DNA from: an uncultured Planctomycetales bacterium
GTDB taxonomy: Bacteria; Omnitrophota; Gorgyraeia; Gygaellales; Profunditerraquicolaceae
Assembly: GCA_964579435.1 (NCBI GenBank)
Contig: CAZOGI010000001.1
Coordinates: 157,907 to 221,906 of the forward strand
Length of the DNA: 64,000 bases
Direction: 5' to 3'
Shown here: positions 1,150 to 30,984 of the stretch, piece after piece
Numbering within the stretch: position 1 is the first letter of the stretch
Layout: each line of letters begins with the position of its first letter
Notes under the pieces: generated by a model
Seen by the model: the letters and a program-made list of their open reading frames with translations, nothing else
The model's database searches: none
What the model was told of the DNA's origin: nothing
Position numbers and translations under genes: made by a program

Positions 1150-3111
1150 TTATTCGGAGAACTGCAAGGGGTTATAGCCGTAATAGGCGAAGAGCGTGTA
1201 GGCGGTGCCGGCAACCGAACCAGTGGCTTTACCTTTGGGAGTCACCCAGCCATGGCCGGTATCAACCGACTGTTCCGAGGCATACGGCAGACAACCCTGC
1301 CCTTGTCCCGACGGAGAGGGACTGGAAATAACCATCTTTGCCAACTCATTGAGATAGGCGCTGGCCTTTTCTGCATAGAGCGCGGCCTTCGCGGCCTCGT
1401 TGCGCGAAGCAAAATAGCGCGAGAGGATCTGATACGAAACGACCATCTGGGCGGTCCATTCCGGGGAAACGATGCCGCCGCGGGCCAGGTGCCGCTGCGC
1501 CGCGAAATCAAACCCGCGCACGCGCACCGCCGCTCCCTCCGGGCGCACATAGGAAACCTCGACGCCGCACTGGGTCTCGGCGAACGCCATGATCTCCTGC
1601 GGATCCATGCCCAGCTCGCTGAGCTTTTCCGGTCCGATGCTGGCAATCGACCAGGCATAGGTATCGGTGGCCACCGTAGCATCGCCTTTGCCGCGCTGCA
1701 CCGGAACCTCGCCGCGGTCATAGGTATGCGCCTGGAGCCAGGAGAGCACCCGTTCCGCCGCCTGCTGGTATCGCTCGTGCCCGGTCATACGGCTCAGCAG
1801 ACGGTAAAAAGCGTAGGCATCCAGATTGTGCTCGGTAGCAAACCAGGAGACGTTGGGTCCGCCGCGGATACCGCCGCCGTCATCCTCCTGCTGCAACTGC
1901 AAGATGGCCGCGGCAATCTCCTGCGCCAGCGGCAGAAAGGTCTCGTCACCGGTCTGGCGGGTATACTGCAGCGCCGCGATTCCCAGCCAGATATTGGGTC
2001 CGGCATGCACGACGTATTCCGCAGGCGTCCCGTCGTTGAAATAATAGGCGTTGACGAAGCGGCCGTCGATGCGTTTTGCCCGCTGCGCGAAAAAGGCCAG
2101 GATATTCCGGGCGCGCGCCGCGTCGTTGAAGAGCAGGTACGCCTGCACCGCCAGCGCCTGGTCGTACACGAACGCCCAGCCGCCGACGGCATCGTCCCCT
2201 TCAAAACTCAAGACCAGGCCGGTGCGCGGATTCTGGTGCACCGCCAGCCACTGATACATTTTCTGGATATTGGCCTTCTCCAAGACCGCCTTACGGTGGA
2301 CCAGACGCGCTATCTGGGTGCTCGTCTGCGCCTCATTGGTCCGGACCCGCTGGAGGCGATGCTGCAGGATCGAGCGCTCCGTCAGGAGCTTGCCGATAAG
2401 CGTGTTGAGCTTGCTCAGGCGCTCTTCCTGGCGCAGGGACGAGGTACGCGCCGCCTCCAGATCGTTCAGATGTACCTCCAGCCGCTGCAACTTCTGTTGC
2501 AGATCCGCGCGCGCCGCGCTCAGGGAGTGGATCTGCTGCTCGGCCGCTGAGGTTTCCTGAGAGACTTTGACCAACTGGGAGATGAGCTGCTGGTTGCCGC
2601 TCACCAGCCGCGCGTTCCAAGCCGCGCTCAAAAGCAGACCGGCCCCCAGGAGAACGAAAATCCCGGCCACGATCGGCGCGGTCAACACGCGCGTCCAGGC
2701 AAAACGCAAAAGCATCCTGCCGTCCGCGGCATCGATCTGCTCATAGCGGACGCCGAAGAGATACCGGCCGACCCCGTCGGTATCCTGGCGCATCCAGGCC
2801 GCGGCGCCGCGGGCACTGACCAGGCGCTTGGTGAACGGAGTCTCGATCTCGAGGGAGAATTGTGCCTTCTGGGAAGCGAGCTTTTCTGCGGCGTCGGCGG
2901 AGAAACGGTTAACCGTCAGACAGATCCCGCCTTTACCTATATTGTTGGTGAAACCCTGGAACCACTCGGAGAGAAAATGTTTCCCGTCGCAGCTGACGAG
3001 CCTAAACTCAACCGGCAACACCGTATCCAGACGCAGGTATTGGCGGCGGTTCGACCGGTTGCCGGTGCCGGGCTGCCCCAAAGACTTATGGTCGCTGGCC
3101 GGGATCGTCAT
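1150..3111 (-). CDS. PilZ-domain protein with one TM helix, a coiled coil and a C-terminal (alpha/alpha)6 glycoside-hydrolase-like domain
   Basis: N-terminal PilZ-like motifs RRQYLR and NIGKGGICL. TM segment LTAPIVAGIFVLLGAGLLLSAAW, followed by a Gln/Leu-rich coiled coil. The C-terminal 350 aa resemble a six-hairpin glycosidase fold (WAFVYDQALAVQAYLLFND... NIWLGIAALQY... FATEHNLDAYAFYRLL). ATG at 3109-3111. Confidence 0.6.
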   Translation of the reverse strand: MTIPASDHKSLGQPGTGNRSNRRQYLRLDTVLPVEFRLVSCDGKHFLSEWFQGFTNNIGKGGICLTVNRFSADAAEKLASQKAQFSLEIETPFTKRLVSARGAAAWMRQDTDGVGRYLFGVRYEQIDAADGRMLLRFAWTRVLTAPIVAGIFVLLGAGLLLSAAWNARLVSGNQQLISQLVKVSQETSAAEQQIHSLSAARADLQQKLQRLEVHLNDLEAARTSSLRQEERLSKLNTLIGKLLTERSILQHRLQRVRTNEAQTSTQIARLVHRKAVLEKANIQKMYQWLAVHQNPRTGLVLSFEGDDAVGGWAFVYDQALAVQAYLLFNDAARARNILAFFAQRAKRIDGRFVNAYYFNDGTPAEYVVHAGPNIWLGIAALQYTRQTGDETFLPLAQEIAAAILQLQQEDDGGGIRGGPNVSWFATEHNLDAYAFYRLLSRMTGHERYQQAAERVLSWLQAHTYDRGEVPVQRGKGDATVATDTYAWSIASIGPEKLSELGMDPQEIMAFAETQCGVEVSYVRPEGAAVRVRGFDFAAQRHLARGGIVSPEWTAQMVVSYQILSRYFASRNEAAKAALYAEKASAYLNELAKMVISSPSPSGQGQGCLPYASEQSVDTGHGWVTPKGKATGSVAGTAYTLFAYYGYNPLQFSE

Positions 3112-3133: not shown

Positions 3134-5563
3134 TCATTCCTTCTGACCCTGCGATAGTTTGTTCTGCCGCAGGACTATATGTTGTTTGCACCGGTATGCC
3201 AGGCGCTGCATAAATTCCCTGAATGCCGCGTACTCCGGAAGCGGAACCGTTGATTTCTTACGCACCAGCTCCTGCCTAAAAAATATTGTATTCTTTTTCT
3301 GGCGGTATGCAACCGTAAAAGACAGCCAGGGACTGTCTTCAAAGAAACTCTCCGGAAGCGAAAGGACGCTCAGGCTTGCAGGCAATTCGATCTGGAACTC
3401 ATTCTCCTTGGCTTCCAGGCATTCAAATTCAAGCGGATAGCTGCGCCTGGCCAGGGCGACCGCTGACACATCCAGGGAGGGAAGCTGCGGGATGATGCGC
3501 AGCGATCCGGCGCGCGCGAAATACTCCGGCCCGCGGAAAGAGTACCGCAGCAACGGCGTCTCTCCCAGCCCGGCGGCGTTCCTGGTCTCGTACCGGGACA
3601 GCTGCGCCCCGATAGAAAAATCCTGTATCCTGCCGGCCAGCTCCTGCTCGATGAGCTCCGGGGGCGTGAAGAGGAACCAGTGGCGCATGGCCTGCGCGTT
3701 CAGCCCGTAGGAAAGAACCGTCCGCTCCGCCAAAACCGATTCAGCATCAGCCTGTACCCACAGCTTCAGATCCTGCTTAAGCAGATTGTGGGCGGCCGCA
3801 AACGCCGGCGTCCGCAGGATCCGGTAGCCGTCGGGGCCGCAGAGCAGCACCGTGCGGTCCTGGTCGCCCAGCGGCAGATCCCCGAACGAGCAGGTCTGTG
3901 CCGTCGGATCGAGAAAAACCGTCTCCCCGTCGATCTCGGTGGCGGCGATACAATGGTTAAAGAGCACCGTCGAGAAATCGGCGCGCATGTCGGGCAGCTC
4001 CTTTGTCGGGATAAGCACCGGCCATCCCGGCAGCCCGGCGGCGCGCAGCATCGTCACCAAGAGAACCGCCTGATCTTTACAGTCGCCGTACTTGTTGCGG
4101 AAGATATCGGCGGCGGCGTGCGGCTCATACCCGGCCTCGCCGTATTCGACCGCGACATAGCGGATCTCCTGCGCACAATACTCGTAGAGCGCCTCTGCGC
4201 GTTCCCGCGGCGAACGCGCAGAACGCAGGAGCTCCCCGATTTTAGCCTGGATCGCCTCGTCCGCCCGGATCTTATCCTTCGCCAGATTCCACCACCACTC
4301 GTACACCTCCTGCCAGTCGTCAAACGTCGACAACAACACCGTCGGATTGATCCGGGCCTCCTCGGGCATGAGCGGCTCGGGAATGATCTGGGGGATATCC
4401 GCCATCACCCACTCATAGGCCGGCCCCCGCGCGGTCTCGGTTACGACCGGCTGCATCTTTACCCCGAAAGAGTTGTATTCCTCGTTGAGCAGGAGCGAAG
4501 AGAGCCTGCGTCCCGGAGGCAGGCTGACCTGAAGCGCCGCGCGCATGATCGGCTCACCCGACTGCACCGGATAGCGCAGCACAAAATCCTTGCCGTTGAT
4601 GAGCTCGTGCGAGACGATACGCGCCCGGTACTCGACGACCGAACCGACCGCCACTTCGGGGAAAGAGATGATGAGAACGCGCGCGTTGCTGTAGAGGGGG
4701 AAATTCAGGTACTTCGAAACGTCCCGCAGGTGCCTCGTCCCGACGTCGACGACCGTCCCGTCGGGCTTGATCGTGCGGGCATACTCCAGCTCTATCTTTT
4801 CGTACGTCGAATCGTACTCGAGGGGCAGCTCCGAGAATGCCTCTTTGCCGCGCTCGTTGAGGATCTTAATGACGTAATGCAGGCTCGTCTCCTGGCCGTT
4901 GCCGGGGCCGACGCTTAAACGTTCGTCACAGAGCAGGATGAGGGCGCCCGCCTGCGGGTACCGCTCTTTCCCCGGGGCTGCGGCGATCAAGGCGCTGATC
5001 TCGGGAGCGGCATCTCTGATATGAACCAGTCCCATTTGGCGTTCGATCGCGCCGATGCGCTCGGCGGCCCGGCCGGCAAATGCGGGTTGGGTGATCAAAC
5101 GGTAGTGCTGCAACGCCTGATCAAAGAGGTTCAGTTTCTCGGCGGTGAGGGCGCGGAAATATCGCATTTCTTCGTCAACGGGATCGTGCGTGCGCAACAC
5201 CTCCAGGGCATCGGTATACTGCCCGAGCCGATACAGCGTTATCCCCAGGTATTTGCGTGCCTCGGGCAGTGCGCTTTGACGCAGATGCTCCAGGGCTTTC
5301 TCGAACTCCGCGTGATCGAAATAGAGCCTCCCCAGCGCCGCATGCGTGCGGTCGGTATCGATGCCGCGGAGCAAACCTTCCTGATAGCCTGCAACCGCTT
5401 GACGGTAATAGGACGCCGAAACCTCCGCCAAACGAGCGGGAGAAGCGAGTCGTTCCTGACGGCAGCCGCCGGCGCAGCAGAAAAATGCCCCCAGCAGGAA
5501 CGCGCTCCCCAGAAGAACGCCCCGCTTTTTTCCCCCGAAGCGATTACGTAACGCGGTATTCAT
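3134..5563 (-). CDS. Transglutaminase-like (DUF3857-type) lipoprotein with N-terminal TPR repeats
   Basis: The internal ATG at 5561-5563 (MNTALRNRFGGKKRGVLLGSAFLLGAFFCCAGGC, a lipobox-like signal) is chosen over the 922-aa track ORF. TPR-like segment LGRLYFDHAEFEKALEHLRQ. Transglutaminase core Cys in YGDCKDQAVLLVTMLRAAGLPGWPVLIPT. Confidence 0.6.
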   Translation of the reverse strand: MNTALRNRFGGKKRGVLLGSAFLLGAFFCCAGGCRQERLASPARLAEVSASYYRQAVAGYQEGLLRGIDTDRTHAALGRLYFDHAEFEKALEHLRQSALPEARKYLGITLYRLGQYTDALEVLRTHDPVDEEMRYFRALTAEKLNLFDQALQHYRLITQPAFAGRAAERIGAIERQMGLVHIRDAAPEISALIAAAPGKERYPQAGALILLCDERLSVGPGNGQETSLHYVIKILNERGKEAFSELPLEYDSTYEKIELEYARTIKPDGTVVDVGTRHLRDVSKYLNFPLYSNARVLIISFPEVAVGSVVEYRARIVSHELINGKDFVLRYPVQSGEPIMRAALQVSLPPGRRLSSLLLNEEYNSFGVKMQPVVTETARGPAYEWVMADIPQIIPEPLMPEEARINPTVLLSTFDDWQEVYEWWWNLAKDKIRADEAIQAKIGELLRSARSPRERAEALYEYCAQEIRYVAVEYGEAGYEPHAAADIFRNKYGDCKDQAVLLVTMLRAAGLPGWPVLIPTKELPDMRADFSTVLFNHCIAATEIDGETVFLDPTAQTCSFGDLPLGDQDRTVLLCGPDGYRILRTPAFAAAHNLLKQDLKLWVQADAESVLAERTVLSYGLNAQAMRHWFLFTPPELIEQELAGRIQDFSIGAQLSRYETRNAAGLGETPLLRYSFRGPEYFARAGSLRIIPQLPSLDVSAVALARRSYPLEFECLEAKENEFQIELPASLSVLSLPESFFEDSPWLSFTVAYRQKKNTIFFRQELVRKKSTVPLPEYAAFREFMQRLAYRCKQHIVLRQNKLSQGQKE

Positions 5564-6638
5564 AGGAAATGGCACAACTCCCTTCCCGGGAGACCATACA
5601 CGGCCCCAGCGGAGACTGCGGCCTACAGCGGCGCGCGAACAACGGGCAGCGCGGCGGATCGAGCTTTCCCCGCAACACCGCAGCACAGCGACAGCCTTCC
5701 CGGGGAGAAACCGGCTGCCTCTGCCTCCGCAGCGCAACGGCATGCCGGGCATCAAAATGAGCGAATTGCGCCCGGAAAGAGAATCCGCTTTCCGCGATAG
5801 AGCCGAACCCGCGCCAGACCGCAGCTTTCGGTTCGAAGACGCGATCCAGGATGCGCTGGGCATGCACATTACCCTGTGGCCGCACGACCCGGCTATATCC
5901 ATTCTCGACCCGCGCGATGCCGCGGCGCAACTGCCGCAACAGCGTCAAGATCCCGCAGAGCATATCCGCAGGCTCAAACCCGGCCACACAACAGCCGATG
6001 CCGTACGTCCGGGCAAACGGCTCATACGCGCGCGTCCCGATAATAACCGACACATGCCCGGGACAGAGGATGCCGCTGATATCGACACCCTTGCCGCGCG
6101 CCAGGAACGAGAGGACCGGCGGGATACGCTTGAGCGCGTTGAGAAAAAAAAGGTTCCCGACCTTCTGGCGGCTGGCCTGCAAAACCGCCAGCGCCACTGC
6201 CGGGGCAGTTGTTTCGAATCCGACACCCAAAAAGACAATCTTTTGTCGCGGATTCTCCCGCGCCAGGGAGAGAGCCTCCAGCGGCGAATAGACCGTGCGA
6301 ATCCGGGCACCGGCTGCACGCGCCGCGGCAAGACTGCCAAAACTGCCCGGGACCAGCAGCATGTCCGCGAAGGTCGCCACCTGAACCCCGGGCGAGCGGG
6401 CATAGGCGATCGCCGTATCGATATAGCGTTGGTCGCTGACGCAGATCGGACAGCCGGGACCGGAGACCAGGCGGACCGTCTTCGGCAGATACCGGTTCAG
6501 GCCGAAGCGGTGGAAGGCGCGGGTATGCGTCCCGCAGACCTCCATCAGGACCGCCGGTTCCCGCGGCGCAAAGCGCTGCAGAAGCCCTCCGAGCCGTTCC
6601 AGATGCCGCGGGGAGCGGAACTCGTCAACAAATCTCAC
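5544..6638 (-). CDS. hypD: Hydrogenase maturation factor HypD
   Basis: N-terminus MRFVDEFR..., then LMEVCGTHT, GPGCPICV, and a C-terminal Cys cluster. GTG start at 6636-6638. Overlaps the hypC stop. Confidence 0.85.
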   Translation of the reverse strand: MRFVDEFRSPRHLERLGGLLQRFAPREPAVLMEVCGTHTRAFHRFGLNRYLPKTVRLVSGPGCPICVSDQRYIDTAIAYARSPGVQVATFADMLLVPGSFGSLAAARAAGARIRTVYSPLEALSLARENPRQKIVFLGVGFETTAPAVALAVLQASRQKVGNLFFLNALKRIPPVLSFLARGKGVDISGILCPGHVSVIIGTRAYEPFARTYGIGCCVAGFEPADMLCGILTLLRQLRRGIARVENGYSRVVRPQGNVHAQRILDRVFEPKAAVWRGFGSIAESGFSFRAQFAHFDARHAVALRRQRQPVSPREGCRCAAVLRGKLDPPRCPLFARRCRPQSPLGPCMVSREGSCAISYEYRVT

Positions 6639-6834
6639 GTAACACCCTCAGGGTCTCGGCGGCCCGCCGGGGATCGATCTTCTCGATGGCGAAACCGGCA
6701 TGGACCAGAACATACTCCCCGACCGCGACGCCCGGGACCATGGCGATGTTTATCCGTCGCTGCAGCCGCCCGGCAGCGACCGTGGCAAACGAGCCCTCTT
6801 TACTGACGATCTTCAACGGAACGGCAAGGCACAT
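6625..6834 (-). CDS. hypC: Hydrogenase assembly chaperone HypC/HupF
   Basis: N-terminal MCLAVP motif, 69 aa, directly upstream of hypD. Confidence 0.85.
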   Translation of the reverse strand: MCLAVPLKIVSKEGSFATVAAGRLQRRINIAMVPGVAVGEYVLVHAGFAIEKIDPRRAAETLRVLREIC

Positions 6835-6837
6835 ATC

Positions 6838-7983
6838 TTAACCCTGGAAAGAAGAAAACCGGCTCTTCGGTGAACAGGAAGCGATGACCGCCTGCCCGAG
6901 GGAGACCGACGCGTCCCCCGCGGGAAGCCGGCGATGCACCCGCACGCAAAACCCCGCTTTATATAGTAACGCACCCAGGTGCTCCCGCACAAGGGTATTG
7001 TGCATGACCCCGCCCGCAGCCACCACCGTGTTGATTCCCGTTCTGGCGCGCAGGCGCACGCATACCGCCGCAGCAAGGTGCGCCACGGAATAGTGCAGCG
7101 CGGCCGCAATATCCGCGCGGCTTTGTTTGGCCTTCAGGTCAACGACGATCCCGCGCACGATCCCACCGAGGGCAACCTCCAGGCATCCTGCACGTTCCCG
7201 CAGGCGGTACGGATACAGCCGCGGCGGGTTCCGGCTGCGGCGGGCCAGCGCTTCGAGTGCCCGCGGCAGCTGCGCCTCGGCGCACGAATCCCGGCAACAC
7301 AGGATGATGCTCGCCGCGGCATCAAAAAGACGCCCGGCGCTGCTGGAGAGCGGCGACGCAAATCCGCTGGCAGCCAGCGCCAGAACCGCCCGTGCTTTTT
7401 TGCGGGGAAGGCCTTTTAAAAAACTCAAGCCCTGCCGCCACAGACGCTCGCCGTAGAGACGCTGCAGCCATACCAAAGCCACCCGCCACGGCTCCCGGAT
7501 CGCCGCTTCTCCTCCGGGCAGAACAACAGTCTCAAGGTGCCCGGCGCGGATATAGCTGCGGTAATCGCAGATCAAAAACTCTCCTCCCCACAGCGTGCCG
7601 TCGCTGCCGTACCCGGTGCCGTCAAAAGCGATGCCGATCACCCGGCGGTTAGGCAGGCCGCTTTCGGCCATAGCCGCAGCGATATGCGCGTGGTGATGCT
7701 GGACGCGGACCAGGGCCACCCGGCGCCGGGCCGCCACCTCCTGCGCGTACCGGGACACGCTATAGCCTGGATGCAAATCCGCCGCCAGAACGTGCGGCCC
7801 CCTCTGCATCCACCGACGGACCGCTTCCCTGAAGCGCACGCGCTGGCGATACTCGCTGCAGTCGCCGTGGAGACGCGAGAAAGAGGCGGACCGGCCGGAG
7901 GCGAAACAGAGGGTATTTTTCGTTTCGGTGCCGAAGGCCAAAACCGGGGTCGGAACCGGGAAAGGCAGCGCAAGCCTATGCAT
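6838..7983 (-). CDS. HypF-like carbamoyltransferase, Kae1/TsaD-like C-terminal domain only (no acylphosphatase, Zn-finger or YrdC domains)
   Basis: AFGTETKNTLCFASG matches the start of the HypF Kae1-like domain. Histidine-rich HHHAHIAAA and GGVMHN motifs. The start was moved to the internal ATG (MHRLALPF) at 7983. Adjacent to hypC and hypD. Confidence 0.6.
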   Translation of the reverse strand: MHRLALPFPVPTPVLAFGTETKNTLCFASGRSASFSRLHGDCSEYRQRVRFREAVRRWMQRGPHVLAADLHPGYSVSRYAQEVAARRRVALVRVQHHHAHIAAAMAESGLPNRRVIGIAFDGTGYGSDGTLWGGEFLICDYRSYIRAGHLETVVLPGGEAAIREPWRVALVWLQRLYGERLWRQGLSFLKGLPRKKARAVLALAASGFASPLSSSAGRLFDAAASIILCCRDSCAEAQLPRALEALARRSRNPPRLYPYRLRERAGCLEVALGGIVRGIVVDLKAKQSRADIAAALHYSVAHLAAAVCVRLRARTGINTVVAAGGVMHNTLVREHLGALLYKAGFCVRVHRRLPAGDASVSLGQAVIASCSPKSRFSSFQG

Positions 7984-8818
7984 CGTTTCCCTCCGCAGCC
8001 ACCAGCTCCAACGAAACGATCGCATCGACCCGGAACGTCCGCTCGGCACCGCGCAGCAGGCAATGCCCGCGCACGTACGAAACGCCGTTTTCCTTGAGGA
8101 TCTGCTGCGGCACGATCAAACGTTGGCTGAGCGGGCCGCCGCTTTTCGCCAAGTAGCGAATCGCAAGGCGCGCCCCGTCGTCGATCGCCTCCTGGATGCG
8201 CGAGATCTTTTCCTGTTCGCGGGCAGCCAAAGCGCTGTGGGGAAGCGCACAAAGATCCAGGAACGTATCGGTATCCCTGATGCCTTTTGCCTGCAGCAGA
8301 CCAAGCAGGGCCAGAAAAACACGCGCGGTCAACTCCACATCCGCTCCGGCGCGGTGCGCCTGAGGAATGCCCAGGCCCAGCGCCTGCGCCACCGCCTGCA
8401 GCGAATAGCGCTCCTGTCCCGGCAAGAGCCGGCGCGCCAGCCGCAGGATATCCGCCACTATCATCTCTGCCGGTTCCGCCAACCCTGCCGCTGCAAGCTC
8501 GGCGCGCAAAAACGCCAGGTCAAAACGGGCGTTGTAGGCGCAGACGCAGCTGCCCTGGATAAAGCGCAGAAACTCCGGCAGCACCGCGCGGCAGACGGGC
8601 TTGCCCGCCAGCATTGCGTCGCTGATATGGTTGACCGCGAAGGCGGCCGGCGACACCGGGCGTTGCGGATCGATGAGTGTTTCAAAAACCGCCTCGGTCA
8701 CGTCCCCGCGCAGACGCAGTGCCGCCAACTCGACGATACGGTCTCCCGTCTCCGGATTCAGTCCGGTCGTCTCGGTATCGAATATGGTAAAAACGGTACG
8801 GTCAAGCGCCTGTCCCAT
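7976..8818 (-). CDS. DnaQ-like 3'-5' exonuclease (DEDDh) fused to a C-terminal WYL-like domain
   Basis: Exo I motif FDTETTGL, then YNARFDLAFL and HRAGADVELT. C-terminal LAIRYLAKSGGPLSQRLIVPQQILKENGVSYVRGHCLLRGAERTFRVDAIVSLELV matches the WYL consensus (the ...RtFrldRI.. motif). Confidence 0.6.
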   Translation of the reverse strand: MGQALDRTVFTIFDTETTGLNPETGDRIVELAALRLRGDVTEAVFETLIDPQRPVSPAAFAVNHISDAMLAGKPVCRAVLPEFLRFIQGSCVCAYNARFDLAFLRAELAAAGLAEPAEMIVADILRLARRLLPGQERYSLQAVAQALGLGIPQAHRAGADVELTARVFLALLGLLQAKGIRDTDTFLDLCALPHSALAAREQEKISRIQEAIDDGARLAIRYLAKSGGPLSQRLIVPQQILKENGVSYVRGHCLLRGAERTFRVDAIVSLELVAAEGNDA

Positions 8819-9710
8819 GCCCCGGATACGCTACAAACGCCGGAATTAAACGCAGCGGACGGTACGATCTCTTGACCGCTCGCAGGTTCTCCAGTCCGGA
8901 ATCGTCCATAACGTTGATAAACGGATACGCGCGGAGTTCCGCGCAGAGCTCGCGGAAGATATATTGGGCCGCCCCCTTCAACGCAAGGTCGGTGAATTCA
9001 AAGAGGACGCAGAATGTCCGGGGGCTCAAGGCCACCCCGAAGGTGAAGGCGCAGAGTATGCCGTCGGCCGTCGCCACCCGGCCGATGCCCCCGAGTTTTT
9101 CAAAACCATCCAGGAGCACCCGCAGGCAACTGAAGGTGTCCTCGAGCATGCCCCGGTAAAGCGGATCGCTGCTGCGCTCCCGGCGCTGGCACATCCACCG
9201 CTGAAAGAGGCGTACGCATTCCTGCCGGTCGCTGCCCCGGTACGGCCGGTACTGCGCCCGGCAGTGTTTGACGAAATAATTGTACGCGGCGCGCTTTGAT
9301 TTATAGGCGTTGCCCGTCAGCCGGGCAAGACAGGAGCGATCGCAGACGTACTCCCCGGATTTCTCGCTGCAAGAAAACCCGCCTTCGGCAAACAACGCAC
9401 GTTCCGGAGCTTCGATATTCTCGATCCGGGTAACGCCGCTTTCGCCGTTTATCCGGCGCAGGCGCTCACCCGCAGTACGCGCCGCCACGATCCTCTTGCC
9501 CTTACCCAGCGGTGGCAGAAAGAGGAACGCGCCGACGCGGTCCCGGAAAAACACGCACAGCTGTTCGTCGATGAGCTGCCATTCTATGCGATAGAGCTCT
9601 TGCCAGATAAAAATGGAAGCGAAGGCGTACGCGGACAATTCGTGTTCGCGCTCACCCAGAAACAAAGAAAAAGTCCGACGATGCGCATACTGCAGCTTAT
9701 GCAGGCTCAT
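8802..9710 (-). CDS. DUF2156 domain protein (homolog of the C-terminal aminoacyl-tRNA-dependent transferase domain of MprF/LysX)
   Basis: GNAYKSKRAAYNYF motif plus overall pattern. 302 aa, stand-alone. The family assignment is from memory, not a search. Confidence 0.5.
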   Translation of the reverse strand: MSLHKLQYAHRRTFSLFLGEREHELSAYAFASIFIWQELYRIEWQLIDEQLCVFFRDRVGAFLFLPPLGKGKRIVAARTAGERLRRINGESGVTRIENIEAPERALFAEGGFSCSEKSGEYVCDRSCLARLTGNAYKSKRAAYNYFVKHCRAQYRPYRGSDRQECVRLFQRWMCQRRERSSDPLYRGMLEDTFSCLRVLLDGFEKLGGIGRVATADGILCAFTFGVALSPRTFCVLFEFTDLALKGAAQYIFRELCAELRAYPFINVMDDSGLENLRAVKRSYRPLRLIPAFVAYPGHGTGA

Positions 9711-10203
9711 GCGGGATATCCAGCTCGATAAGCTCCAAAACGTCCTCGTACGCCTGGATGATCTGCGGATTTTCGCTCAGGAGCCTGCGGTAGGCGCGGG
9801 AATTGAGCAGTTCGGTCAGCGAGGAGACATGCGCCTTGAACGCCGGCTGCGCCAGCCGGGAGGCGACATACGGGCAATTCAGGTCGACCGTCAATACCAC
9901 GCGCTTCTTGCGTACATTCAGCAGAAACGGATACAACTGGCATTCAAATGGCCGGGTCGCGTAGACCTTGCATTTGTTCGAAGCGCGCTCAAGGAACGGA
10001 CACCAGAAATATCCCGCGCTCTCGTCGGGCACCAGGACCAGCCGCTTATCCGGCGAGATCGAAACGGCGGGGGCGGCGGCGTCGACAAAGGAGAGGATCT
10101 CCTCCTCCAGCAGACAGGGCGCCCATGCCGAATGCGCCTCCCGGAACCGACAGCATCCCTGGCAGGAAAGGCAGACCTGCGACGGAACGAATTGCGGGAT
10201 CAT
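9697..10203 (-). CDS. YkgJ-family Zn/Fe-S cysteine-cluster protein (UPF0153)
   Basis: CLSCQGCC and CPFL...C...C cysteine spacing. 168 aa. Overlaps both neighbours. Confidence 0.55.
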   Translation of the reverse strand: MIPQFVPSQVCLSCQGCCRFREAHSAWAPCLLEEEILSFVDAAAPAVSISPDKRLVLVPDESAGYFWCPFLERASNKCKVYATRPFECQLYPFLLNVRKKRVVLTVDLNCPYVASRLAQPAFKAHVSSLTELLNSRAYRRLLSENPQIIQAYEDVLELIELDIPHEPA

Positions 10204-10520
10204 TTAACCACGCTGCCGACGGCGACCTTCTTTTCCGGAGTCACGATAACCGGACCGCTCTCACCCGATGCAGCCAGGAGCATCCCCTGGCTTTCGACAC
10301 CTCGCAGCATCGCGGGCTCCAAATTGTCGACCAGCACGACCTGCCTGCCGATCAGGGAGTCCTTGTCATAGGCGTTGCGGATCCCCGCAACGACCTGTTT
10401 GCTGCGGCCGCCGACGTCCAACGTTATAACGTAAAGCCGGTCTGCGTTCGGATGCTCAGTGACCGCGGTAATCTCGGCAATACGCAGCTCAAGCTTTTTA
10501 AAATCATCGATCGTGATCAT
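10200..10520 (-). CDS. tRNA-binding protein (CsaA/Trbp111-like EMAP/OB-fold domain; MetG C-terminal-like)
   Basis: LRIAEITAVTEHPNADRLYVITLDVGG...QVVAGIRNAY, 106 aa. GGAGGGGGT sits upstream of the ATG. Confidence 0.65.
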   Translation of the reverse strand: MITIDDFKKLELRIAEITAVTEHPNADRLYVITLDVGGRSKQVVAGIRNAYDKDSLIGRQVVLVDNLEPAMLRGVESQGMLLAASGESGPVIVTPEKKVAVGSVVK

Positions 10521-10544
10521 ACCCCCTCCGGTGCCCCGCTGCCG

Positions 10545-12068
10545 TTAGAACGTCCATTCCAAAGACAACTCTACCTGGTAAGCCGCATCCGCCTTTGCGT
10601 CTCCCCGCACGAAAGGGGTCAAAAGGCTCCCGTCGACGTCATCGCGCCGCTCCCGGTAAAAATTCCCGGGGATAAAGTAACCGGCAAGCAGGCTTACCAG
10701 GGCGCGTTCGTTCATTTGATAATCGAGCGTCACATCCACTTCATAGCCCAGCTCTGCCGAGAGCGCGCGCGGCTCCCCTTCCCACATGCCGACCCCCCGG
10801 GCAAAACAACGAAGATAGTATCCCTGCACCGTCACCAACACCGCATCGGTGAGGGATACCTCACAGCCCAGAGAAGGCATCAGCAGATTATCGTAATCAG
10901 ACGCCCCGAAGGTCCCGGGACGGGGAACCCCGTAATTGAGACCCCACCCGCTGCCCATTGCCACCAGCGGCTTGGCATCGCAGCTCTCCTGGCCGATGGA
11001 GTCGCCCTGGGCCTGATTGAGCGACGAGAAGACGCTGAACGCCCGGTTTTTGCCGCGGGAGAGTGTCGCATCTTGCGCCAACACTTCCTCCTCGGTAACG
11101 GCGTTGCCGGAACAGACGAGGAATTCCCCGAACGGGACGACCCGTTCTTTCCCGTAGGCTACCCTGCCGTATACCAGATATCCCTGATGCTGAATATCCT
11201 TAAAGGAGGGGTCGCCGCTTTGGGCAACCCCGAAATTGCGGGCGCACTCCGCCTTGAACGCAAAAGGCGCAGCCTCATAGGTCAGGGCAAACCCTGCGGT
11301 GCCGAGGATATCGTGCTTTACCGGCGCGCCCCAGAGCGAATCGCGTTTGCCGGCCGCAGTATAATCGCTTAGTACCCCGCAGTACGGCTGCAGCCACAGC
11401 CGCTCCCTGCGCCAGGAGAGATCAGCTGCCCAGAAGTTGATCGCCCCCGGATGGTAATCAATCCCTTGCTCCTCGTCCTGACGGATACGCGCACCGAGAT
11501 GGTTTTTCAGGTGCGCGTCCGGCCGGCAGTAGTAGAGGTGCCAGGAGAACGGCTCCGCCTCGCGGTACAATTTCACGCCGATGTTCTCATAACTGCCGTT
11601 GAGGCTCATCCCCAGTCCGACGACATAGCTCGTCAGGCCGGCCTGGACCCGGAAACGGTCCCGCCAGGGCACATCCACCCACAACTCCTCCAACTGCGGG
11701 AGAAGCTCATCGTCACGGTACGCCTCGATGCGGCCGCCCGACGTCAAAAGAGCATTGCTTACCCACAGCGGCGCCGAATAATCGAACGGCCCGTTGCGTT
11801 CTATCTTCAGATATGCCCGCAGGCCATCGTCTTTGTGCGTATACCCCAACCCCAGGCTGTAATCAAACCCGATCGACGCGCTGCGGTCATCGGTGTTGCG
11901 ATGATCGAGGTCCACCGTATTCTCGAAAGTCACCGCATCCGTGCGTTGATACAGCTGCAGGGTCACCTCGGCCCGGGGCGTATCCATAACCGTCAAAGCC
12001 TGCGCGCCGCCTCCGCCGGCACACAGCACCCCCGCCAGACCAAAAACAAGAAAAACTGCCCGCCGCAT
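10545..12068 (-). CDS. Putative outer-membrane beta-barrel protein (alginate-export/porin-like)
   Basis: Signal peptide MRRAVFLVFGLAGVLCAGGGGAQA. Alternating aromatic/Gly beta-strand pattern. C-terminal ...LEWTF aromatic terminus. Confidence 0.4.
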   Translation of the reverse strand: MRRAVFLVFGLAGVLCAGGGGAQALTVMDTPRAEVTLQLYQRTDAVTFENTVDLDHRNTDDRSASIGFDYSLGLGYTHKDDGLRAYLKIERNGPFDYSAPLWVSNALLTSGGRIEAYRDDELLPQLEELWVDVPWRDRFRVQAGLTSYVVGLGMSLNGSYENIGVKLYREAEPFSWHLYYCRPDAHLKNHLGARIRQDEEQGIDYHPGAINFWAADLSWRRERLWLQPYCGVLSDYTAAGKRDSLWGAPVKHDILGTAGFALTYEAAPFAFKAECARNFGVAQSGDPSFKDIQHQGYLVYGRVAYGKERVVPFGEFLVCSGNAVTEEEVLAQDATLSRGKNRAFSVFSSLNQAQGDSIGQESCDAKPLVAMGSGWGLNYGVPRPGTFGASDYDNLLMPSLGCEVSLTDAVLVTVQGYYLRCFARGVGMWEGEPRALSAELGYEVDVTLDYQMNERALVSLLAGYFIPGNFYRERRDDVDGSLLTPFVRGDAKADAAYQVELSLEWTF

Positions 12069-20255: not shown

Positions 20256-21596
20256 TTAATTTCCCCCGGGCTCGATCCCGGTAACCGTGCTGATAACCTC
20301 TCCCCGGGAGAGCCGCGTTCGCAGCCGCTGTCCCGGAGCGAGCGTCGCGGCATCCTTCACCACCGCGCCGGAAGGATCCTCAAAGGTAATACTGTACCCC
20401 CGCGCCAAAACCGTCAGGGGGCTGAGGCTCTGGAGTTTCGCGGTCAGGGTGGAAAATGCGGCGGCGCGCAGCGCCACCAAATGCGCTGCCTCCTGTGTCA
20501 GGCGCGTCAGGCACTGCCGCAACTGCTCCCGCGAGCGCACGACGTGCGCGCGGGGATTGACCAAAAACAGCTTTTTGAACGCCGCCTCCGCGCTCTGCCG
20601 GCGTAAGGCAAGGGCATGTTCCGCCGTCACCCCCAGGCGCCGCTTCAGATCCTGGACATCCTGTGAGCAACGCTCTATCTCTTCCCGCAGCAGGCGCCGC
20701 AGGCCCTGCAGGGCAACCCCGAGGCGCCCCGACAGATCCTCCTTCCGGGGGATCACCAGCTCCGCGGCAACCGACGGCGTCGCCGCGCGGACATCGGCGA
20801 CCAGATCGGCAATCGTCCAATCGCTCTCGTGACCGACCGCCGAGACGACGGGGATCGTCGAATCGTAGATCGCGCGGGCCACCGCTTCTTCGTTAAACGC
20901 CCACAGATCTTCGATGCTGCCCCCGCCCCGCCCGACGATCAAAACCTCGACGCGCTCGGTCGCGGGAACGGCGCGATTGTAGTCATTGAAATCCTGAATC
21001 GCCCTGACAATATCCTCTTTCGCCCCCTCTCCCTGCACACGCACGGGAGCGATAAGGACCGGAACGCTGGCGTGACGGCGCGCGCAGACCTTCAGGATAT
21101 CCCGCAGCGCAGCACCCTGTGCGGAGGTAACTACCCCTACGCGACCGGGGAGTGCCGGCAAGGCCCGTTTATGCTCCAGCGCGAACAACCCTTGAGCCTG
21201 CAGTTTCTTCTTCAGCTGCTCCAAGGCTAGTTGCAGGCTCCCGATCCCTTGCGGCTCCATCTTGGCGATGACCAGCTGGTACCGGCCATGGGGCGGGTAC
21301 ACTTCGACGGATCCGAAACAGACCACCTTTTGCCCGTCCTGCAGCTTAAACGGGATGGCGGAGGCAGCGCGGTTGAAAACCACGGCCTGCAGGAGCGCCT
21401 CGCTGTCTTTCAAAGAAAAATACCAATGTCCGGCAGCCGAGCATTTGCAATTGGAAATCTCCCCCTCCACCCATACGTCGCAAAAGGTCTGCTCCAGGAT
21501 ACTGCGGATATCGCGGGTGATCTCCGCGACCGAGTAGACGCGGCGCTCTTCTGCCGCGGGCGCAGGGGATAAAGCGACATGAGAGCGTGGGCGCAT
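20256..21596 (-). CDS. xseA: Exodeoxyribonuclease VII large subunit
   Basis: N-terminal OB fold (YSVAEITRDIRSILE..VWVEGEISN) plus catalytic domain, 446 aa. Confidence 0.85.
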   Translation of the reverse strand: MRPRSHVALSPAPAAEERRVYSVAEITRDIRSILEQTFCDVWVEGEISNCKCSAAGHWYFSLKDSEALLQAVVFNRAASAIPFKLQDGQKVVCFGSVEVYPPHGRYQLVIAKMEPQGIGSLQLALEQLKKKLQAQGLFALEHKRALPALPGRVGVVTSAQGAALRDILKVCARRHASVPVLIAPVRVQGEGAKEDIVRAIQDFNDYNRAVPATERVEVLIVGRGGGSIEDLWAFNEEAVARAIYDSTIPVVSAVGHESDWTIADLVADVRAATPSVAAELVIPRKEDLSGRLGVALQGLRRLLREEIERCSQDVQDLKRRLGVTAEHALALRRQSAEAAFKKLFLVNPRAHVVRSREQLRQCLTRLTQEAAHLVALRAAAFSTLTAKLQSLSPLTVLARGYSITFEDPSGAVVKDAATLAPGQRLRTRLSRGEVISTVTGIEPGGN

Positions 21597-27421: not shown

Positions 27422-28945
27422 TCAGAGAACGATCCGATACCAGTCAATCTGAACGCCCGAGAGCTCCTGACGACGCAACAGCTCAAGATGCCCCTGGAAC
27501 GACTCGGGCAGGACAAACGGCTTGTTCAACGGCCGCACCAGCCAGAGGGAGCGGATGCCGCGCAATTGAAGCGGGTCGTGGATCACCTCGGTCATGGCCA
27601 GACACAACCAGCCCGAATCCAACTCCCGGCCCAGCTGCTCCATGCTGATCACCTGGCGGAAGGGACGATCCAGATAATGGAAGATGTTCAGGGTCTCGGA
27701 GACATCGGTCACCGCCACCATATCCGCCGGCCCCAGGCGCTCCCGCAGATAGTCGGCGATCACACGGGCATCGGCCTCGACGGTCAAAGAAGGCCGCCCG
27801 TAGAGCCCGACAAAACGCACGGCGTTGGCGACCAGAATGACTGCGGCGAACGCGACCAGCCAGCGCCGCGCCGGCGGCGGGTAGACACTGTGCGCCCAGG
27901 CGATCAGAAGATAAAAAAAAGCGAAGGCTGTTAAAAAATATGACGGATAGTGCAGGTAGGTGCGTCGCAAGAACGCACCCGCGACCGCAACCAGCACCGG
28001 AATGATCCCAGCCAGAACCATAAGCTGCCGCGGGCGCTGTGCGAGGGCCTGCAGGAAACGCAGCGCCCCGGAACCGGACCAGGCGATTCCCCGTAGCGCG
28101 GTACGCCTCAAAAAGAGCGCTCCTACAAAAACACCGATAAACCAAAGGCGCGTGGACCAATGGTTCGCATACAGAAGGAGCAGCTCCCAGAGGGCCGCGG
28201 CAGGACGTACCTCCTGCTGAAAGGCGCGGAAGACGTAGGGGTAAAAACGGTATTTCAGCGCCACCGCCGTCGTGATCCCCATGAGCCCGAAAAGCGAGAC
28301 GGCGATGAGCAGGCGCCGGAAGGGCCGGGAAACGGCGCCGGGGACCAAACAAACCCCCAGCTGTAGCAGCAGCAGGAAAACCCCGAAATAGTGCAGCCAA
28401 ACCGATAGCAGCAGGAAAAACGCGCAGAGATACCGGTAAACCCGCCGGGGATGAGAGAGCGAAAGGAAGAAATAATACATCGTCCCCAGGGACACAACGG
28501 TCCAGATGCTGTAGACGCGCGCCTCGCTCGATAAATAGATGAACCGTTCCGAGCAGGCGATCATCAGGCAGGTCAGGACCCCGACCGCAGGACTAAAAAG
28601 CCGGCTGCCGAGCCGGTAACTTACCCACATGATCCCCACGCCGCTCAGGAGAGAGAAGAACCGCGGCAGGAATTGCCAGAAGAGCGCCCCGCCCAGGAGC
28701 TTTAGGAGAATGAAGTACAGCGGGGGCATCATGTCGCAGGAAGAGAAGAACCGCTCGAACATCTCGAACCAGGGGAGGCGGATGAACGAGAAGGTAAGGG
28801 CCTCGTCGAAATTAAAAGGCCGCAGCAGCATAACGACGCAGCGCAGCGCAGTGCCGAAAACGATTATGGCGAGGGCAAGACGGGAGCAACGTGCAGCTAT
28901 CGTATCGGGGGGGCGAGGGGAAAAAGAAGCATCCCGGTTGTTCAT
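27422..28945 (-). CDS. GT-C fold membrane glycosyltransferase (family 39/ArnT/PMT-like)
   Basis: Twelve or more predicted TM helices. N-terminal loop motif region (FNFDEALTF). 507 aa. ATG overlaps the pheT TGA (ATGA). Confidence 0.5.
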   Translation of the reverse strand: MNNRDASFSPRPPDTIAARCSRLALAIIVFGTALRCVVMLLRPFNFDEALTFSFIRLPWFEMFERFFSSCDMMPPLYFILLKLLGGALFWQFLPRFFSLLSGVGIMWVSYRLGSRLFSPAVGVLTCLMIACSERFIYLSSEARVYSIWTVVSLGTMYYFFLSLSHPRRVYRYLCAFFLLLSVWLHYFGVFLLLLQLGVCLVPGAVSRPFRRLLIAVSLFGLMGITTAVALKYRFYPYVFRAFQQEVRPAAALWELLLLYANHWSTRLWFIGVFVGALFLRRTALRGIAWSGSGALRFLQALAQRPRQLMVLAGIIPVLVAVAGAFLRRTYLHYPSYFLTAFAFFYLLIAWAHSVYPPPARRWLVAFAAVILVANAVRFVGLYGRPSLTVEADARVIADYLRERLGPADMVAVTDVSETLNIFHYLDRPFRQVISMEQLGRELDSGWLCLAMTEVIHDPLQLRGIRSLWLVRPLNKPFVLPESFQGHLELLRRQELSGVQIDWYRIVL

Positions 28946-30984
28946 GTCGGCCGTTCGGTACGCACCTGCGCCCCAAACCGGTGCGTCAGAAACGCCTGAA
29001 CCTGCTGACAGAGCGGGGTGATTTCATCCTCGGTCAGGGTGCGCTCGCTGCTGCGGAATTCCAGCGAGAACGTAAGCGCCCGCATTCCCGCGGGAACCCA
29101 GCCCCCGGCAAAATGATCCGTGAGTCGCGCCTGCCGCAGGAGCGCGACGCGCTCTCCCATGAGCTCCCGGATCATCTCCTGAGCGCTGACCGACTCAGCG
29201 ACGCAGAGGGTAAGATCGCGCTGGATCGCGGGAAAACGCGGCAGGGGCTGGAACCGAACTGCGGCCGCGGCCCCGAGCAGCGGCTGCAGATTCAGTTCGG
29301 CCAAAAACACCTGCTGGGCCTTGATCGCATAGGCGGCCAGGACCTCCGGGGAAACCGCGCGCATGCTGCCGATGGCGCCCCCCTGCACCAGGATGGCGGC
29401 CTGGGGCTGCATCTGGTCGAAGGAAAACGCGTATTCCCGGACCCCCAGATGCCTGAACAATTCCTCGAGGATCCCCTTCAGATGCAGCACGCTCGCCGGC
29501 TCACGCATCGCGCCCCGGGGAGAAAAAAAACATTTCTGGCCACACAGCGCGATCCCCAAATGCAGCTCCTCAACACACCGGCGCTGGCGCACGAAAAAAG
29601 TCCGGGCGATTTCGAACAAACCGACAAAGGATTGCTGCTGATTCAGGTTTGCGCGGATGCTGCGCAAAAGCCCCGGCGCCAGAATCGGGCGCAGCACCTC
29701 CTGCTCCGCGCTCAAAGGGTTCTGCACCTCCAAAAGCGTTTCCCCGTCCGGCCACAGACCCGCCAAGGATTTCTTGTCGACGAGGCTGACGGTTATCGCC
29801 TCGGTCAAGCCAAGCCCGGCCAAGAGCTGCTTCGTGCGGCTGACTGCCGGGCGTATCCCCTGCGGCAAGAGGCGCGGGCGCGTCGCCGGTATCGTCGTCG
29901 GGATGCGTTCGTATCCGTAGATGCGCGCCACCTCTTCGATAATATCTGCCTCCTGGGAGACGTCGAGGCGGAACGCCGGGACGCGCACGCGCATATTCTT
30001 GCCCGCCCCGCGCACGGCAAACCCCAGCCGTTGCAGTATCCGCTGCGTCTGTGCACGCGCAACCGCAACTCCCAGCGCCTGGTCGACGTGTTGCGTCGAC
30101 ACGGGAATGCTTCTCCCCCGGCGGTGCCGAAGCGGCGTCAAGGAGCAGGAGGCCAGGCGCGCACCCGCCCATCGACACAGCAATCCCGCAGCCAGCCCGG
30201 CTGCCCAGCGCGCCGTTTCAACGGCAACGCCGCGCTCGAAACGGTAGGAGGCGTCGCTGTTCATACCGAGCCTCTGGCGGCCGCAGCGCACCAGCGCCGG
30301 ATTAAAAACCGCAGCCTCCAGAACGAGCGCGGTCGTCGCGGCGGTTATTTCGGTTTGCCTGCCGCCCATCACGCCGGCGACCGCTACCGGACGTGCGCGG
30401 TCAGCGATAACCAGGATCTCTGGCCCCAGCGCCCGCTCCTGTCCATCGATGGTCGTGAGACGCTCGCCGGGACGCGCCCGTCGCACGGCGATAGTGTCGG
30501 TCCCCAAGGCCGCGGCATCAAACGCATGCAGCGGGGCGCCCAGGCCAAAAAGGATATAGTTGGTGATGTCGACGATGTTGTTGATGCTGCGGCAGCCGAT
30601 GCGCTCCAGGCGCTCCTGCATCCAGGAAGGCGCCGGGCAGACTTTCGCGTCGAGGAAGACCTGGGCCGAATAAAACGGGCAATCGCGCACGCTCTCGATC
30701 GCCAGCCGCAACGGCTTGCCTGCGCGCGCCGTCTTTGCCAGCGGCCTGCCCGGCGCGCCGAAACGCAGCGGTTCTCCGGTCAGCGCCGAAACTTCGCGCG
30801 CGACGCCGCAGACGCTCAACCAGTCGGGCCGGTTAGACGTTATCTCGATCTCAAAGATCCAGTCCGTTCCGGCGCGCTCCAGCCCTTTGACCTCCAGCCC
30901 CGCCATGGTCAGGCGCTCGGCAAGCTCCTCGGGAGGCAGGGTCAGCCGCACAAATTCGCCAAGCCACTCGTAAGAGATCTTCAT
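28942..30984 (-). CDS. pheT: Phenylalanine--tRNA ligase beta subunit (short form lacking the N-terminal tRNA-binding domain)
   Basis: MKISYEWLGEFV..., B3/B4, B5 and FDX-ACB-like C-terminus. 680 aa versus about 800 typical. Confidence 0.85.
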   Translation of the reverse strand: MKISYEWLGEFVRLTLPPEELAERLTMAGLEVKGLERAGTDWIFEIEITSNRPDWLSVCGVAREVSALTGEPLRFGAPGRPLAKTARAGKPLRLAIESVRDCPFYSAQVFLDAKVCPAPSWMQERLERIGCRSINNIVDITNYILFGLGAPLHAFDAAALGTDTIAVRRARPGERLTTIDGQERALGPEILVIADRARPVAVAGVMGGRQTEITAATTALVLEAAVFNPALVRCGRQRLGMNSDASYRFERGVAVETARWAAGLAAGLLCRWAGARLASCSLTPLRHRRGRSIPVSTQHVDQALGVAVARAQTQRILQRLGFAVRGAGKNMRVRVPAFRLDVSQEADIIEEVARIYGYERIPTTIPATRPRLLPQGIRPAVSRTKQLLAGLGLTEAITVSLVDKKSLAGLWPDGETLLEVQNPLSAEQEVLRPILAPGLLRSIRANLNQQQSFVGLFEIARTFFVRQRRCVEELHLGIALCGQKCFFSPRGAMREPASVLHLKGILEELFRHLGVREYAFSFDQMQPQAAILVQGGAIGSMRAVSPEVLAAYAIKAQQVFLAELNLQPLLGAAAAVRFQPLPRFPAIQRDLTLCVAESVSAQEMIRELMGERVALLRQARLTDHFAGGWVPAGMRALTFSLEFRSSERTLTEDEITPLCQQVQAFLTHRFGAQVRTERPT

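Follow-up and report, generated by a model that had tools for sequence, protein, structure and literature searches.

The WYL domain has been studied almost solely as the sensor of transcription factors, with one additional role as an accessory domain of a helicase. The literature describes the WYL domains of the regulators PafBC, DriD, BrxR, and CapW as ligand sensors and those of PafBC and DriD as binders of single-stranded DNA (ssDNA). In PafB, both ssDNA binding and activation require R211 and R214, two arginines at a +3 spacing (PMC11804915). The helicase in question is Pif1: structures 8BNV and 8BNS come from Pif1 helicases that, at full length, carry a WYL domain at the end of the sequence (PMC9964779). 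When isolated, the WYL domain of TePif1 binds ssDNA and not double-stranded or G-quadruplex (G4) DNA, and either its deletion or the R470A/C494A/R501A/R504A substitution lowers ssDNA binding about 15-fold, which led the authors to term it an accessory ssDNA-binding module (bioRxiv 10.1101/163188). Here we describe a protein, called Exo-WYL below, in which a WYL domain is joined to a DEDDh 3′-5′ exonuclease. Its gene lies in a 64,000-nucleotide stretch of DNA from an uncultured Planctomycetales bacterium that GTDB places in the Omnitrophota (GCA_964579435.1, contig CAZOGI010000001.1). The whole of this stretch is referred to as the window, and positions are those of its forward strand. The literature searched, including the WYL surveys of Makarova 2014 and Müller 2019, makes no mention of an exonuclease–WYL fusion; the architecture is visible in databases, but under generic annotation only.

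Identity of the Fusion Protein

Exo-WYL is encoded by a complete open reading frame (ORF) on the minus strand of the window (7976..8818) that starts with ATG and specifies 280 amino acids plus a stop codon. An identical protein (P0001) is present on a 241-kb NCBI contig. An original prediction, made from the DNA letters alone, had proposed that this ORF fuses a DnaQ-family exonuclease to a WYL-like domain, and the frame and all of the motifs it quoted were located exactly in the ORF list: FDTETTGL at residues 13-20, YNARFDLAFL at residues 95-104, and HRAGADVE at residues 155-162, followed within residues 218-273 by the WYL-region motifs LAIRYL, RLIVPQQI, and SYVRGHCLLRGAERTFRVDAIVSLELV. The N-terminus of the protein is a DnaQ/RNase_T-type exonuclease domain (residues 9-177; 8288..8794, on the minus strand, as are all features of the gene). 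The Pfam RNase_T model (PF00929) covers residues 12-168 with E=7.3e-33, scoring 114.9 bits against a cutoff of 24. All three motifs of the DEDDh superfamily (DxE, NxxxD, and Hx4D) are present on an RNase H-like exonuclease fold. Conservation in close and divergent homologues places the catalytic acidic residues of Exo I in D14-T-E16 (8771..8779) and the catalytic aspartate of Exo II at D100 (8519..8521), inside N96-x-x-F99-D100. Exo III, which defines the DEDDh subtype, is H155-R-A-x-x-D160 (8339..8356), with H155 and D160 conserved.

A linker at residues 178-195 (8234..8287), modeled with a helix at residues 183-190, leads into the WYL domain (residues 196-273; 8000..8233), in which an N-terminal helix containing I208-Q-E-A211 precedes a five-stranded Sm-like barrel. 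The protein stops 7 residues past this domain. The claim that the C-terminus is a WYL domain is borne out by Pfam WYL (PF13280), which covers residues 205-271 at E=2.7e-13 and 50.1 bits against a cutoff of 21.8 when the whole protein is searched, and which scores E=4.6e-14 and 52.6 bits against the same cutoff (21.8) when the C-terminal 104 residues are searched alone. Among the Pfam matches there is no helix-turn-helix (HTH) or WCX domain, even at E values up to 10, in agreement with the earlier statement that the protein is not a transcription factor.

AlphaFold2, run with a 40-sequence alignment, gave a model with a predicted local distance difference test score (pLDDT) of 90.1 and a predicted template modeling score (pTM) of 0.86. 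From the N-terminus, the model consists of the exonuclease (residues 9-177), one short and one long helix (183-190 and 195-214, respectively), and a barrel of five strands (217-273). The Sm-like β-barrel with its preceding helix is the fold by which WYL domains are recognized. When the model was compared with the PDB using Foldseek, matches were returned for the exonuclease domain only, at a query TM-score of about 0.55. They include PolC, epsilon, DinG, CRISPR DnaQ, ExoX, RNase T, and TREX, and no solved structure spanning both domains was found in this search.

The concern raised in the original prediction, that the fusion might be a frameshift artifact of two genes, is settled by the homologues. 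The top 120 are single ORFs of 266-291 residues with both domains, all 63 divergent homologues described below have both domains as well, and an artifact is ruled out by the occurrence of the fusion as a single ORF in hundreds of orthologues. The residues, motifs, and profile matches confirm that Exo-WYL is a genuine DEDDh exonuclease, with its catalytic residues intact, fused directly to a genuine WYL domain.

Conservation and Distribution

A word-indexed search recovered 692 relatives of Exo-WYL. The best 120 of these are all 266-291 residues long and 47-55% identical to it, with both Pfam domains. Those that have a name are Candidatus Omnitrophota entries recorded as "exonuclease domain-containing protein" or "WYL domain-containing protein", and Joint Genome Institute (JGI) annotation applies the labels "Pol III epsilon" or "PolC". 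Taxon labels for these and other relatives are those of the metagenome-assembled genome (MAG) records. Omnitrophota orthologues number in the hundreds and are typically ~273 residues long. An exhaustive profile search over 1.84 billion representatives at 50% identity yielded 1,354 matches at a threshold of E≤1e-30; among the best 150 representatives, about 100 are full-length two-domain proteins and about 20 consist of the exonuclease only. A second large clade, with proteins of about 278 residues, is labeled Chloroflexi, Chloroflexota, Anaerolineae, or Anaerolineales, and single members on short contigs carry Patescibacteria and Myxococcota labels. Among the matches listed for GTDB species genomes, full-length proteins come only from Omnitrophota-type MAGs, some of them labeled "uncultured Planctomycetales", and proteobacterial DnaQ genes align with the exonuclease domain only.

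Conservation was assessed in a close set of 40 homologues and a divergent set of 63 aligned representatives that are 27-49% identical to Exo-WYL and all (63/63) contain RNase_T and WYL by Pfam. The close set shows no variation at the exonuclease residues D14, E16, D100, H155, and D160 or at the WYL positions Y222, R233, P237, C253, L255, R260, F262, and D265. The divergent set keeps D160, Y222, and F262 invariant, with conservation of at least 90% at D14, E16, D100, H155, R233, P237, C253, and R260. The retention of both catalytic and WYL positions at these two depths indicates that both domains are under purifying selection, and the conserved catalytic residues lead us to predict that the nuclease is active. 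The linker is different: F186, L189, and F190 are conserved in the close clade, and across the broad family it varies in length and shows little conservation.

At least one syntenic orthologue lacks the WYL domain altogether. An Omnitrophota MAG (JAFGUY010000048.1; locus L037) encodes a 193-residue exonuclease at 1619-2200, with the DUF3857 gene following 25 nucleotides later and the Hyp genes, described below, absent as well. This gene looks like a natural WYL deletion variant. That the exonuclease is kept in its syntenic position without WYL suggests that WYL serves as an accessory, not as a gate that the enzyme must have.

The WYL Domain and Its Ligand Channel

A profile built from the WYL domain only gave its best matches to Deferribacter Pif1 (8BNV, DdPif1) and PafBC, both at 2e-11, and matched Sulfurihydrogenibium Pif1 (8BNS, SsPif1) at 5e-9. 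The Pif1 entries are the top PDB sequence matches of this WYL domain, and the Pif1 and PafBC matches are far stronger than those to CapW or BrxR. In the HMMER alignment, R464, C488, R491, R495, and R498 of DdPif1 correspond to R233, C253, R256, R260, and R263 of Exo-WYL, which are the predicted ssDNA-binding channel residues (8030..8122). By identical spacing, R464, C488, R495, and R498 of DdPif1 equate to R470, C494, R501, and R504 of TePif1. All four residues altered in the binding-dead TePif1 mutant are kept in Exo-WYL, with the cysteine followed by an arginine at +7 and another a further +3 along, a final interval that also separates the two essential arginines of PafB. Judged from these aligned positions, the ligand channel of Exo-WYL is intact and of the ssDNA-binding type, and the domain is predicted to bind ssDNA.

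The comparison with Pif1 helicases (TePif1, DdPif1, and SsPif1) extends to architecture. In both cases WYL sits at the C-terminus of a DNA-processing enzyme and not on an HTH domain, and in both the channel has the same R/C/R/R residues, including the conserved cysteine. The partner differs, being a superfamily 1B (SF1B) helicase in Pif1 and a DEDDh 3′-5′ exonuclease in Exo-WYL; Pfam detects no helicase domain in Exo-WYL, and the likeness to Pif1 is restricted to the WYL domain. Pif1 helicases have the nearest characterized WYL domains that are fused to an enzyme. There the domain works in cis as an accessory ssDNA-binding module, which in TePif1 is dispensable and specific for ssDNA, and not as a switch for small molecules. 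A mode of action similar to that of Pif1–WYL is the most plausible one for Exo-WYL. The WYL regulators PafBC, DriD, BrxR, and CapW differ in design. They have an HTH domain and usually WCX, whereas Exo-WYL has neither; its output would be that of an enzyme active site instead of transcription, and its genes lie in neither a defense island nor a damage regulon.

Relatives of the Exonuclease Domain

When NCBIfam models are ranked for Exo-WYL, equivalogs of the actinobacterial-type DEDD exonuclease that contains GIY-YIG come out on top, followed by PolC, DinG, and DnaQ. No equivalog cutoff is reached, and only the generic dnaq subfamily-domain model passes. The cutoffs of the epsilon equivalogs (TIGR01406 and PRK05711) are missed, with scores of 107.9 vs 222.7 and 108.6 vs 196. 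Where the architecture differs, the best profile matches include Exo–DinG helicase, triple-Exo–GIY-YIG–UVR, and Exo–BRCT proteins, which marks this as an exonuclease clade that has repeatedly been joined to DNA-repair targeting modules. By analogy, WYL looks like another such module. The nearest exonuclease-domain sequences are those of DinG, the PRK07883-type DEDD exonuclease with GIY-YIG, exonuclease with BRCT, and MrfB, the last of which is described as a DEDDh repair exonuclease. Like these modular enzymes, Exo-WYL combines a DEDDh core with a C-terminal module of a kind that serves targeting or regulation in DNA repair; unlike them, it is small (about 275 residues) and has only two domains, with WYL as the module.

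Relative to DNA polymerase III (Pol III) epsilon and the PolC exonuclease, Exo-WYL falls below the epsilon cutoffs and has WYL where epsilon has a clamp-binding motif and a C-terminal segment that binds the PHP domain of alpha. Among the 63 divergent homologues, a clamp-binding-like motif of the Qxx[LM]x[FL] type after the exonuclease domain was found in none under a strict definition and in 2 under a loose one. An epsilon-like C-terminal tail is absent from the same set, in which the tails beyond WYL are mostly 0-5 residues long. The F-x-x-L-F sequence of the close clade was considered as a clamp-binding motif and rejected, as the model shows it as a well-ordered helix and its conservation does not extend to the broad family. 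XseA, the exonuclease VII large subunit, is encoded in the same genome region (20256-21596, minus strand), so Exo-WYL is not the only ssDNA exonuclease of this organism.

Genomic Context

In the window, Exo-WYL is part of a co-linear string on the minus strand (3134-10520) that also occurs at loci L003, L005, L006, L010, L011, and L013. The string is headed by a free-standing tRNA_bind gene encoding 106 residues (10200..10520) and a CxxCxxCC/YkgJ-like gene (9697..10203), which are followed by a DUF2156/LPG_synthase_C gene (8802..9710) whose stop overlaps the Exo-WYL ATG by 17 nucleotides. Downstream, the ATG of a HypF_C-only gene (6838..7983) overlaps the Exo-WYL stop by 8 nucleotides, and HypC (6625..6834) and HypD (5544..6638) come next; all of these genes are on the minus strand. 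The placement of the gene between a DUF2156 module and hyp-like genes in the original prediction was thus correct. The abutting or overlapping DUF2156, Exo-WYL, and HypF_C genes suggest a single transcription unit. The order tRNA_bind–CxxCxxCC/YkgJ–DUF2156/LPG_synthase_C–Exo-WYL is kept in 15 of the 15 Omnitrophota loci with enough flanking sequence. Downstream, the usual Omnitrophota order is HypF_C-only–HypC–HypD–TPR/DUF3857/transglutaminase, sometimes with pabB/pabC inserted or with Hyp genes missing; most orthologous loci, though not every one, have the Hyp block.

A second class of context is found in the Anaerolineae. In three of four loci the order is rplS–RNase HII–Exo-WYL, with an overlap of 8-14 nucleotides between rnhB and Exo-WYL, and in two of these three Fpg and/or GyrA follow. 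A topoisomerase IB gene is found upstream of Exo-WYL in two Anaerolineae loci (L089, 2775-4997, and L091, 2535-4769). Each encodes a protein of about 740 residues with Topoisom_I_N, Topoisom_I, and Topo_C_assoc domains, located just upstream of rplS–rnhB–Exo-WYL; such a full-length topoisomerase IB of eukaryote type is uncommon in bacteria. The fourth locus (L090, 7909-12059; GCA_054920995.1) has CHAT+SIR2_2 and nSTAND1–WD40 genes, whose products are of kinds typical for conflict systems, about 1 kb downstream of Exo-WYL, and it is the only defense-like neighborhood among about 25 loci. Overall, Exo-WYL is a vertical-looking, conserved core gene in the housekeeping strings of two phyla.

This context bears on the setting that the original prediction had implied, that of a defense or damage regulator. 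PADLOC defense families have no match among the 8 genes that make up the window string, and no cas family occurs among the called neighbors within 6-9 kb in about 25 loci. Of the 108 phage records that gave a match, none has the fusion. Among plasmids, 4 matches cover at least 80% of the query, reaching into the WYL region, and the one inspected, a 292-residue protein of Turneriella parva, is without a Pfam WYL match. PADLOC profiles for Cas-associated DEDDh and WYL proteins and for PDC-S48 do match, each on a single domain of Exo-WYL, and the PDC-S48 match involves the exonuclease domain only (residues 8-178 against profile positions 4-173 of 411). Membership in PDC-S48 was rejected, since the 411- and 512-position profiles have no full-length match and the neighbors have no PADLOC matches. 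A defense island as the principal interpretation was rejected as well, given neighbors without PADLOC matches, loci that apart from L090 lack cas or defense genes, and no fusion in the matching phage records. Cas2-DEDDh, S. thermophilus DnaQ, and the Cas-associated WYL proteins differ in that no cas or CRISPR context is found at the examined Exo-WYL loci and in that the exonuclease and WYL of Exo-WYL have each other, and not Cas2, as fusion partner. Of the sensor-gated defense nuclease envisaged in the original prediction, the exonuclease–WYL fusion is real and the defense setting is not supported, the gene being a core gene in fixed housekeeping strings.

Other features of these regions deserve description. 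The HypF of the string consists of the Kae1-like C-terminal domain alone (about 375 residues); the acylphosphatase, Zn-finger, and YrdC parts are absent. The string has no HypE, HypA, HypB, or hydrogenase genes next to it, and a HypF_C/HypC/HypD trio without HypE is unusual. At a locus with a distant Exo-WYL of 38% identity (L087, 5808-7828; GCA_964634935.1), a tRNA_bind gene again precedes, and the genes between it and Exo-WYL are different, encoding YjbQ and an LDcluster4/LOG-like protein. The pairing of tRNA_bind with Exo-WYL has thus survived the replacement of the genes in between. PheT of the window (28942-30984) is a 680-residue protein with B3_4 from residue 102 and no Pfam tRNA_bind (B2) match at E<1e-5, and the free-standing tRNA_bind gene (10200-10520) lies 18 kb from it. 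The latter may encode a B2 domain that has split off from PheT, or else a protein of the Trbp111/CsaA kind. Two minus-strand ORFs, at 1150-3111 (653 residues) and 27422-28945 (507 residues), have no Pfam match at E<1e-5; the 653-residue one occupies the place taken in L003 and L006 by a conserved ~650-residue protein with a weak PilZ match after the DUF3857 gene. A plus-strand ORF of 315 residues (7928-8875) runs antisense over the whole of the Exo-WYL gene, and other long ORFs of the plus strand (5742-6806 and 9948-11372, for example) are antisense to real minus-strand genes; these ORFs span 315-474 residues. These are most likely shadow ORFs of a sequence with 59.5% GC and not genes. The remaining window is ordinary chromosome, with GltX, Dxs, XseA, RNase Y, PheST, and TrkH.

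Proposed Function and Alternatives

With moderate confidence, we propose that Exo-WYL is a 3′→5′ DNA exonuclease with a housekeeping role and that its WYL domain would bind ssDNA in cis and so recruit or stimulate the enzyme. It would be a constitutive, chromosomal member of the DnaQ/PolC/DinG (DEDDh) clade that acts on ssDNA 3′ ends in DNA repair or replication-associated processing. With the 3′ end held in the DEDDh active site, the Arg/Cys channel of WYL could grip the upstream single strand, or ssDNA nearby. In this way WYL would bring the enzyme to gaps, flaps, and stalled forks, where it would raise the affinity or activity of the enzyme. The L037 orthologue that lacks WYL and the exonuclease-only representatives noted above fit an accessory role of the domain, and the RNase HII, Fpg, and GyrA neighbors in the Anaerolineae point to a context of DNA metabolism. 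Several considerations weigh against this proposal. The preference of DEDDh enzymes for DNA or RNA is not assignable from sequence alone. The conserved Omnitrophota neighbors (tRNA_bind, DUF2156, and Hyp-like genes) are uninformative on DNA repair. Ligands other than ssDNA are described in the WYL literature, for example ssRNA for WYL1 and cyclic di-GMP for an L. plantarum regulator. Lastly, a rigid allosteric coupling of the modeled domains would likewise agree with the high pTM of 0.86 and with the linker conservation of the close clade. Allosteric activation by ssDNA is itself compatible with a housekeeping exonuclease of the kind proposed.

Two other roles were considered. Exo-WYL could act at the replisome of Omnitrophota and Anaerolineae as a functional Pol III epsilon or as a back-up like mycobacterial DnaQ, with WYL in place of the C-terminal polymerase-binding segment of epsilon and holding the ssDNA template or a frayed primer. 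We consider this unlikely, given that the epsilon equivalog cutoffs are missed and that the family has no C-terminal tail and no conserved clamp-binding-like motif (strict count, 0/63). Most nonproteobacterial phyla reportedly proofread with the PHP domain of DnaE (Rock 2015; Timinskas 2014), which also counts against this role. Alternatively, the tRNA-related neighbors in Omnitrophota, and these only, suggest an exonuclease of RNA 3′ ends that would resemble RNase T or oligoribonuclease and would, for example, trim tRNA or small RNAs with WYL on ssRNA. This is doubtful in view of the best sequence and structure matches, which are DNA exonucleases, and of the closest paralogous architectures, which are DNA-repair fusions. 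The Chloroflexota clade, moreover, lacks tRNA-related neighbors and has RNase HII, Fpg, and GyrA instead, and since PheT seemingly has no tRNA_bind, the free-standing gene may simply serve PheRS. The tRNA-linked operon was accordingly rejected as a functional clue, being limited to Omnitrophota-like clades and contradicted by the Chloroflexota context, and the RNA exonuclease is kept as a minor alternative.

A ligand-gated nuclease of defense or stress, in which WYL senses ssDNA, ssRNA, or a cyclic nucleotide and switches on an otherwise silent enzyme, would draw on the sensor role of WYL in PafBC, DriD, BrxR, and CapW, on the Cas-associated and PDC-S48 profile matches, on the defined interdomain arrangement that AlphaFold2 predicts, and on the CHAT-SIR2 and nSTAND genes at one Chloroflexota locus, L090. 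We regard it as highly improbable: the gene has a fixed housekeeping position and vertical-looking inheritance in two phyla, the 8 string genes have no defense match and the roughly 25 surveyed loci no cas genes, the fusion is missing from the phage records and WYL from the inspected plasmid match, the PADLOC matches are at the level of domains only, and an orthologue without WYL exists. A further scenario would retain the core-genome exonuclease and have it switched on allosterically when WYL binds ssDNA or a different ligand (a nucleotide second messenger, for example), and/or make it an unrecognized replicative or back-up proofreader of the Omnitrophota, the Anaerolineae, and some candidate phyla radiation (CPR) bacteria, all of them lineages without a canonical epsilon. 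We give this little credence; if the allosteric switch were true, Exo-WYL would be the first case in which a WYL domain is shown to gate a nuclease directly.

Outlook

In the Exo-WYL family, a WYL domain is built directly onto a nuclease, and the gene is a conserved one of housekeeping character in at least two large and mostly uncultured phyla. The family carries a caution for annotation in that a match to WYL or DEDDh alone need not mean defense, and the pipeline labels "Pol III epsilon", "PolC", and "WYL domain protein" are baseless for it. As a compact protein of about 275 residues that is confidently modeled, it offers a system in which the coupling of WYL–ssDNA binding to catalysis could be studied. 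For the Omnitrophota and Anaerolineae, it is a probable DNA-maintenance factor.

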